The notes beneath the pieces are model-generated. The model made no database searches. It was given only the letters and a program-made list of their open reading frames with translations, and was not told the DNA's origin. 64,000 bases of DNA, from IMG/VR virus record IMGVR_UViG_3300025671_008697, one strand, 5' to 3'. Of the stretch, positions 20,372 to 21,181 are shown piece after piece (within the stretch, counting starts at the first letter, position 1; every line of letters starts with the position of its first letter). The stretch is from a virus. Its lineage: Duplodnaviria; Caudoviricetes. The position numbers and the translations under genes are program-made.

Positions 20372-21181
20372 GTGATTGACTATTTTCCAGTTACGGTTCC
20401 TTATAGGGTCGGTCCCACCATGGCCGCTAATGAAGGTCCAGCATTTGTTCCTGTAGAGGACATGTCTCACATAACATCCAAGTTAGCAGAATTAGACAAG
20501 TATGGATCCGATCTGTTTGATTGCCGCAGGCCTGACTTGGTTGAAAAAGCCTCCCAAGTTCTCGGATTAAATCCCATAAGTGACATAGTAGAATTTGCAT
20601 TTTTGTTTAAAGAAGATGTTGCTATTATGCACAAAGGCGTGCTGGAAGCAATCTGTTTCTGCTACCCCAGCAGTTGGATACCAAGTGAACGTATTGGACA
20701 AAGCCTGGCAGAGATACACGCTCCTGTTGCAGATGGCGAACTGCTACGACAAATGAGTCAACGTATCGCCGAAGTTATTGCCACCAAAAGTATGCGTAGG
20801 CATGTTTGGACCATAAGCACTACAGGCGAACTCAGTAATCATCCTAAAATGGCAAAGCCCGAAGTTACTGACCAAACTACTATAGAGGACCTCTACTTTA
20901 GAATGGAAACACAGACCACAATGCCTGTGGGCGATGGCGAAACCGCAGTGTTTTTGGTCAGAGTTGATACTTGTCCATTAGGGGAAATTTGGCAAGACCC
21001 TGCTCGGCGCGATTTGATTATTCAAAGTGTTGACACAATGTCCGATAATGTGCTACAATACAAGAACTTGGTTAAGATTAAAGAAGTCTTAAATAAGAGT
21101 ATTGCTGTAAACCCCGCAAGGGAAGAGGCGAAGAGAAAGGTGTTCTGGACGCGGGTTCGACTCCCGCCACCTCCACCATAA
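20372..21181 (+). CDS. DUF3445 / heme-dependent oxidative N-demethylase alpha-subunit-like protein
   Basis: EDVAIM, CFCYPSSW, IHAPV, RHVWTI, FRMETQT, VFLVRV; last about 27 codons overlap the tmRNA acceptor piece. Confidence 0.75.
   Translation: MIDYFPVTVPYRVGPTMAANEGPAFVPVEDMSHITSKLAELDKYGSDLFDCRRPDLVEKASQVLGLNPISDIVEFAFLFKEDVAIMHKGVLEAICFCYPSSWIPSERIGQSLAEIHAPVADGELLRQMSQRIAEVIATKSMRRHVWTISTTGELSNHPKMAKPEVTDQTTIEDLYFRMETQTTMPVGDGETAVFLVRVDTCPLGEIWQDPARRDLIIQSVDTMSDNVLQYKNLVKIKEVLNKSIAVNPAREEAKRKVFWTRVRLPPPPP
21100..21178 (+). ncRNA. ssrA: Two-piece tmRNA, acceptor piece (5' end approximate)
   Basis: GTGTTCTG-GAC-GCGGGTTCGACTCCCGC-CACCTCC-A-CCA: T-arm and CCA end; late promoter TAAATA at 21090-21095. 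Confidence 0.9.

Follow-up and report, generated by a model that had tools for sequence, protein, structure and literature searches.

Two-piece tmRNAs encoded by phages have already been documented; a count over 18,146 phage genomes gave 53, of which 50 belonged to marine or aquatic phages (Buchholz et al. 2022, PMC9004378). A protein gene with a stop-less message is known from E. coli, where the arfA message has no stop codon and the protein it encodes is repressed by trans-translation (PMC10107115). In the locus described below, an ORF of 269 aa on the + strand (20372–21181), with GTG as its first codon (20372) and TAA as its last (21179–21181), runs into and through the acceptor piece of a two-piece tmRNA gene. 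It lies in a window of 64,000 nt, which is the whole stretch of DNA that was analysed and is part of a 167-kb IMG/VR record with a CheckV completeness of about 45%, from what we take to be a giant freshwater or estuarine phage.

Inspection of the letters bore out, in every detail, the geometry reported in a first-pass annotation of this DNA. The ORF crosses the acceptor piece and terminates right after its CCA, the last five codons (21164–21178) all encode proline, and the final CCA (21176–21178) serves both as the last proline codon and as the CCA of the tmRNA, with the TAA next to it (Table 1). We put the probability at about 80% that this overlap is a recent by-product of the mosaic evolution of the tmRNA gene and not a device.

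Table 1. Features of the overlapping ORF and tmRNA gene, in window coordinates
Feature	Position	Strand	Basis
sigma-70-like promoter, 12/12 consensus matches, upstream of the ORF	20192–20220	+	pattern match; function predicted
HODM_asu-like (PF11927/DUF3445) gene body, residues 1–246, ending ...KSIAV	20372–21109	+	Pfam, homologs, AF2
sigma-70-like promoter, 11/12 consensus matches plus TG extension, in 3' end of the ORF; candidate tmRNA promoter	21030–21059	+	pattern match
21-nt leader motif (TAAATA and first P2 strand), travels with this tmRNA type	21089–21109	+	exact matches elsewhere
tmRNA acceptor piece (5' end approximate)	21103–21178	+	ARAGORN, Rfam, folds
Parts of the acceptor piece: P2 5' strands; T-arm 21151–21167; acceptor 3' strand 21168–21174; discriminator A 21175; CCA 21176–21178		+	
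30-nt segment with small GCAA-capped hairpin at about 21112–21122	21110–21139	+	alignment, fold
23-codon lineage-specific extension, residues 247–269, templated by the acceptor piece	21110–21178	+	direct reading, relatives
TAA closing the ORF, first 3 nt of the intervening segment	21179–21181	+	direct reading, alignment
tmRNA intervening segment, 70 nt, cut out on maturation	21179–21248	+	Rfam, fold; compensatory changes in stem
tmRNA coding piece, from the acceptor 5' strand (G3:U pair); tag frame 21357–21389	21249–21392	+	ARAGORN, Rfam, reading
Intrinsic terminator	21428–21451	+	terminator scan

The annotation had called the protein DUF3445-like, and this held: residues 78–240 match the Pfam model PF11927 (HODM_asu-like, formerly DUF3445) with 97.7 bits against a cut-off of 25. 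When a profile of the family was compared with PDB sequences, the heme-dependent oxidative N-demethylase (HODM) alpha subunit 5LTE was returned (E 3.3e-5), and the top Foldseek matches of the AF2 model, which were also its sole significant fold matches, were the HODM alpha structures 5LTH and 5LTE (E 3.5e-11, TM-score 0.68–0.69, probability 1.00). In that model the block-mean pLDDT is at least 88 across most of residues 30–240, with a dip to 60–74 around residues 111–140, and falls below 50 in residues 251–269 of the tail. A homolog search returned 111 proteins of 210–261 aa, apart from two of 167 aa, and His, Asp, Arg and Trp columns are invariant in this phage set. A tblastn search of 50,697 deposited phage genomes with the 269-aa protein gave no match, and the protein thus has no cultured relative among them; the literature searched contained no link between DUF3445 and phages. 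The homologs form a family of stand-alone genes of giant phages with a predicted PAS/heme fold.

ARAGORN placed a permuted tmRNA with the tag ANDEVFALAA at 21086–21480, and the region scored above the curated cut-offs of two Rfam covariance models, beta_tmRNA (137.3 bits, cut-off 84) and tmRNA_permuted (110.4 bits, cut-off 47). The T-arm, the acceptor 3' strand and the CCA (21151–21178) are encoded upstream of the acceptor 5' strand (21249–21255), and the acceptor stem contains the G3:U pair associated with alanine charging. Pairs in the acceptor and the T-arm are kept, with compensatory changes, across eight phage tmRNAs. The tag frame spells ANDEVFALAA followed by a stop, which fits a resume codon and a tag with a hydrophobic ...LAA tail. 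When the region was used to query deposited phage genomes with blastn, only short matches to the tmRNA T-arm were returned, including one to the annotated SsrA of Pelagibacter phage Mosig. No SmpB gene was found in the roughly 45% complete record, and the phage tmRNA presumably uses the SmpB of its host.

The 111 homologs cover just ~88–90% of the 269-aa query. Within the query's 90%-identity cluster, the tail is present in only five variants, which are ~99–100% identical to the window protein, while members at 90–93% identity end after ...NK(S/N)IAV. In relatives at 93, 83, 66 and ~62–63% protein identity a TGA comes right after IAV (KSIAV or KNIAV), at the place of window positions 21110–21112, and the 23-codon tail is absent from every relative that is 93% identical or less. 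The first-pass annotation had named relatives that stop before 21100 as grounds for refuting its reading; in substance this is what the relatives show, their stop lying about 10 nt further on than that position. Three of the close relatives, from among those at 90–93% identity (L068, L071 and L072), share with the window the tmRNA tag, the CCA, the TAA trailer and the intervening segment, and have a near-identical T-arm. In the alignment, their GTA-TGA and a stretch of 16 nt stand opposite the stop-free 30-nt segment of the window. The same TGA was found in L008 (83%), L009 (66%), and L076 and L078 (~62–63%), as well as in the tmRNA of L026.

When the tail was left out of a maximum-likelihood tree, the long forms fell into one tip clade (support 96/91) that lies among short forms and has successive short-form outgroups. 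As the tip clade is nested in this way, the extension is derived and young. The annotation had itself allowed that the frame might just have lost a stop codon near KEVLNK, and the relatives side with that reading, since all of those outside the ~99.9%-identical group stop at the TGA. The polarity settled in this way is that of the ORF end, and not the order of age of the two versions of the tmRNA 5' part. Contig counts for the five long-form variants sum to 30 in the collection, one of the contigs being 210 kb long, so the long form is not rare and not strongly counter-selected. No sequence variation was seen within the tail among the long-form strains.

The junction differs in two further relatives. 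In L074 (1905–2159), which is 90% identical, the HODM-like gene is separated from the tmRNA start by an inserted small ORF of 35 aa, and it is this ORF that bears the ...SIAV-TGA end overlapping the tmRNA leader. In L076 (2100–2230), only the first ~40 nt of the tmRNA gene is left after the homolog, comprising the leader, the TGA and the P2 strand as far as the beginning of the T-arm. As a metallophosphatase gene comes right after this remnant, the L076 lineage has apparently lost the body of its tmRNA.

Comparison of the long and short forms indicates that the stop was lost when a 16-nt, TGA-bearing segment of the tmRNA was replaced by a 30-nt hairpin version. A point mutation of the TGA was considered and rejected, as the change is a replacement of one segment by another of different length. 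With a plain point loss of the TGA, the ORFs of the relatives would end at a TGA whose last base sits 23 nt past the CCA; it is the 14-nt difference in length between the two segments that makes the window ORF end exactly at the CCA and TAA. The 30-nt segment is also found behind the same 21-nt leader in the two-piece tmRNAs of other jumbo phages, represented by L079, L081 (262 kb) and L083 (345 kb). In L082 and L084 the segment is a variant whose hairpin stem, when read by eye, has changed on its two sides together, the hairpin being absent from the consensus fold. The hairpin version was also sought as an exact pattern in the genomes of 185,579 bacterial and archaeal species, with no match.

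The 21-nt leader recurs, letter for letter, at the head of tmRNA genes in contigs of other jumbo phages, where an unrelated HNH endonuclease gene lies upstream. In contigs of the L079 type the HNH ORF stops inside the leader, and the hairpin version is thus not tied to read-through as such. As the rest of the window tmRNA resembles that of L068 and not that of L079, a short-patch exchange, by recombination between tmRNA versions, is the probable route by which the segment arrived.

More generally, these jumbo-phage tmRNA genes appear to be mosaics in which the 5' part, the acceptor piece and the coding piece recombine separately, sometimes beside an HNH endonuclease gene. Such a gene adjoins the two-piece tmRNA on its upstream side in L079 (8625–9332), L081, L083 and L084, and a homing-type endonuclease in this position could drive segment exchanges. 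The tmRNA of L008 (988–1331) combines an acceptor piece and intervening segment nearly identical to those of the window with an alpha-like coding piece. Its tag is different, reading AANDNAPFEMRLAA, and it has a C-C mismatch at acceptor pair 5; it was missed by ARAGORN and scored 87.5 bits with Rfam. Either L008 is a genuine recombinant, or its 1.7-kb contig is a chimera. In L084, a tRNA with a CUA anticodon (5325–5399; labelled tRNA-Pyl by ARAGORN) lies about 600 nt downstream of the tmRNA; it may be an amber suppressor, which would suggest stop-codon recoding. An exact copy of the 21-nt leader motif was also found in L080 (3732–3752), within an unrelated ORF of 328 aa on an 86-kb phage contig and with no tmRNA at that place; this copy is either due to chance or a recombination scar.

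The letters of the tail are accounted for by the RNA. In the consensus fold of the eight tmRNAs, 11 pairs show compensatory changes, and these are located in the acceptor stem, the T stem, the proximal P2 helix and the precursor stem of the intervening segment. The three bases after the CCA pair in the precursor stem, and the pairing is kept whether they are TAA, as in the window group, AAA, as in L026, or AGA, as in the L079 group. The TAA is also present after the CCA in L068, L071, L072 and L008, the ORFs of which stop 69 nt earlier in window coordinates. As it pairs in the precursor stem and occurs in relatives whose ORFs do not reach it, the TAA is older than the extension and is there on account of the RNA. 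The idea that it evolved to end the ORF was therefore discarded. At the tail, constraint appears to act on the RNA and not on the protein. An open frame through this region also demands little. Of the three frames across the acceptor piece two are open, and at the piece's own composition (61% G+C) a run of 23 codons stays free of stops with a probability of ~0.53. By chance alone, an ORF end right after the CCA is not unlikely.

On the reading that we prefer, recent mosaic evolution of the tmRNA, the ancestral layout would have had the HODM_asu-like gene directly against the two-piece tmRNA, its last codons doubling as the leader and first P2 strand and its TGA lying a few bases into the tmRNA. 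In the strain group of the window, the 16 nt holding the TGA would then have been swapped for the 30-nt version, with its GNRA hairpin, that circulates in other jumbo-phage tmRNAs. With this swap the stop would have gone and the frame would have moved by 14 nt, and as the G+C-rich acceptor piece has no stop in the new frame, the ORF would have reached the pre-existing TAA of the precursor stem after the CCA. Ribosomes reaching the tail would add 23 aa of unstructured sequence ending in five prolines, and any transcript trimmed to the CCA would be left without a stop, a premise that is logically sound. A share of the product would probably end up stalled or tagged, at a cost low enough for the phage to bear. 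That some product is lost is plausible, and nothing indicates that this is put to use. The lack of conservation of the tail suggests that it is neutral.

The mRNA probably starts at the upstream promoter (20192–20220). As no terminator-like site was found on the + strand from the ORF start to 21428, and so none between the ORF and the tmRNA, co-transcription of the ORF with the tmRNA precursor is probable. The tmRNA may also have promoters of its own within the ORF. The sigma-70-like candidate in the 3' end of the ORF overlaps a conserved protein motif, so its function is uncertain, and the conserved leader at 21089–21097 is a second candidate inside the ORF end. The first-pass annotation had described the ORF as crossing a late promoter here. 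TAAATA (21090–21095) is indeed conserved in the tmRNA leader, but the T4-type late promoter motif TATAAATA is not enriched, with 6 matches in the window and 4.9 expected, so the late-promoter label for TAAATA follows solely from the conservation of the leader. A terminator tail and a TATAAATA motif recur together in a 46-nt direct repeat, the copies of which (21441–21486 and 21736–21781) are 93% identical and bracket a small DUF6356 gene (21491–21715).

To see how homologs of the gene end elsewhere, 58 IMG/VR loci with an HODM-like homolog were surveyed. In ~40 of the 58 there is no tRNA or tmRNA within 2 kb and the ORF ends normally. In ~7 lineages (array layouts drawn from L015–L036, L050 and L058) the gene is in a large tRNA array, with up to 26 tRNAs within 4.7 kb, and its stop either abuts the next tRNA or sits 10–23 nt inside it. 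The tRNAs involved are those for Thr, Cys, Arg, Trp and Pro. In L025, L028, L029 and L036 the TAG of the homolog falls in the D-loop of the next tRNA-Arg(ACG). In their sister group (L021, L023, L024, L030 and L031) this TAG is CAG, and the ORF spans the whole tRNA and ends 89 nt beyond it, so that in L021 it reaches into the following tRNA (compare L021:2001–2870 with L025:2001–2723). This distant clade of the same family represents a second, independent loss of a stop into a stable-RNA gene. With at least two such losses, which produced different and unconserved tails, the end of this gene is repeatedly hostage to the adjoining stable-RNA sequence.

These layouts could also mean that the stop never mattered. 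On this view it falls within the mature downstream RNA (tmRNA or tRNA) in every lineage, and processing of the co-transcript would cut the mRNA upstream of it, leaving the message routinely stop-less and making gain or loss of the stop invisible to selection. Alternatively, the overlap itself might be how the whole family limits its expression. The five tRNA identities at or inside which the stop is found, the similar position of the stop in the tmRNA-linked relatives and the two independent stop losses are all what would then be expected. However, most of the surveyed loci have no stable-RNA neighbour and end normally, and abutment may be mere compaction, as tight packing is usual inside phage tRNA arrays. 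The 5' end of the acceptor piece of a permuted tmRNA is, moreover, not known to be a product of RNase P. We consider this explanation unlikely.

A further possibility is that the overlap has been selected across the family, with the stop embedded in the next tRNA or tmRNA so that maturation of the RNA yields a stop-less message. The window would then be an ArfA-like, autoregulatory extreme, in which the tmRNA of the phage would both create the stop-less message and rescue it. The array layouts give hints of a link between the HODM-like family and tRNA biology or of coupled processing. Selection for the overlap itself seems to us quite improbable.

The first-pass annotation had raised the idea of a feedback device. 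In such a scheme, which would resemble that of E. coli arfA, the read-through mRNA of this lineage is trimmed to the CCA, ribosomes stall on it with the help of the polyproline stretch, and the phage tmRNA rescues them, so that the amount of HODM-like protein made would depend on tmRNA level. The geometry of the ORF and CCA is real, no terminator separates the ORF from the tmRNA, and the long-form lineage is widespread. However, in all relatives from 93% down to ~62% identity the ORF still ends 23 codons sooner, and the tree places the long form in a young tip clade. The stop-less arrangement is shared only by ~99.9%-identical strains, and not by homologs as would be looked for in an ArfA-like system. 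The TAA, the CCA and the proline codons were there before the extension and are dictated by RNA structure, and the frame that resulted was one of only two possible outcomes. Comparison thus lends the device no support, as its tail is not conserved, the letters of the tail are set by RNA pairing and the TAA is older than the extension, and we regard it as very unlikely.

An assembly or sequencing error around 21085–21140 that created a false open frame, which the annotation had named as a possible refutation, can be set aside, as 14 contigs in ENA and Logan assemblies encode exactly this 269-aa protein, from at least five samples and different assemblers, with DNA 99.86–99.92% identical to the window across 3.7 kb spanning the region, and the 30-nt segment is a version known from other phages.

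Recent mosaic evolution of the tmRNA thus remains our preferred explanation, and it carries a caution: a striking coincidence of ORF, polyproline and CCA can be a young, strain-level loss of a stop that followed from exchange of a tmRNA segment. The protein that gene callers will report here has 269 aa, of which the final 23 are almost certainly junk. Of modest interest is the recurrence of the HODM-like family in tRNA arrays, where its stop abuts or enters the following tRNA gene; this hints at a testable link to tRNA biology or at coupled processing.

The body of the ORF resembles the HODM alpha subunit (5LTE/5LTH; PF11927) in family HMM, PDB sequence profile and fold, but the N-terminus of the phage proteins is ~100 residues shorter. 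Unlike the gene for the HODM alpha subunit, the phage genes stand alone, often within tRNA arrays, and any enzymatic role is a predicted one. The abutment seen in the phage HODM-like family recalls the tRNA punctuation of mitochondria (the Ojala–Montoya–Attardi model), in which ORFs abut or overlap tRNA genes and protein-gene ends at or inside stable-RNA genes couple RNA processing to the formation of mRNA 3' ends. Mitochondria complete their stop codons by polyadenylation, and we know of no such step in phages or bacteria.

The known case of the scheme that had been proposed for the window is E. coli arfA, where processing removes the stop and tmRNA activity sets the level of the protein. That arrangement is functionally established (PMC10107115), whereas the stop-less geometry of the window is limited to one young strain group and known from its sequence. 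The closest known tmRNA systems are phage-encoded two-piece tmRNAs such as those of the OM43 phage Melnitz and the pelagimyophages (PMC9004378), which share with the window both the order acceptor piece, intervening segment, coding piece and a large aquatic myophage-type genome. The window differs from them in that its best Rfam subtype is beta_tmRNA and not alpha, and in that no riboswitch was seen at its tmRNA. It differs from them also in that the upstream protein gene overlaps the start of the tmRNA and, in this strain group, the whole acceptor piece.
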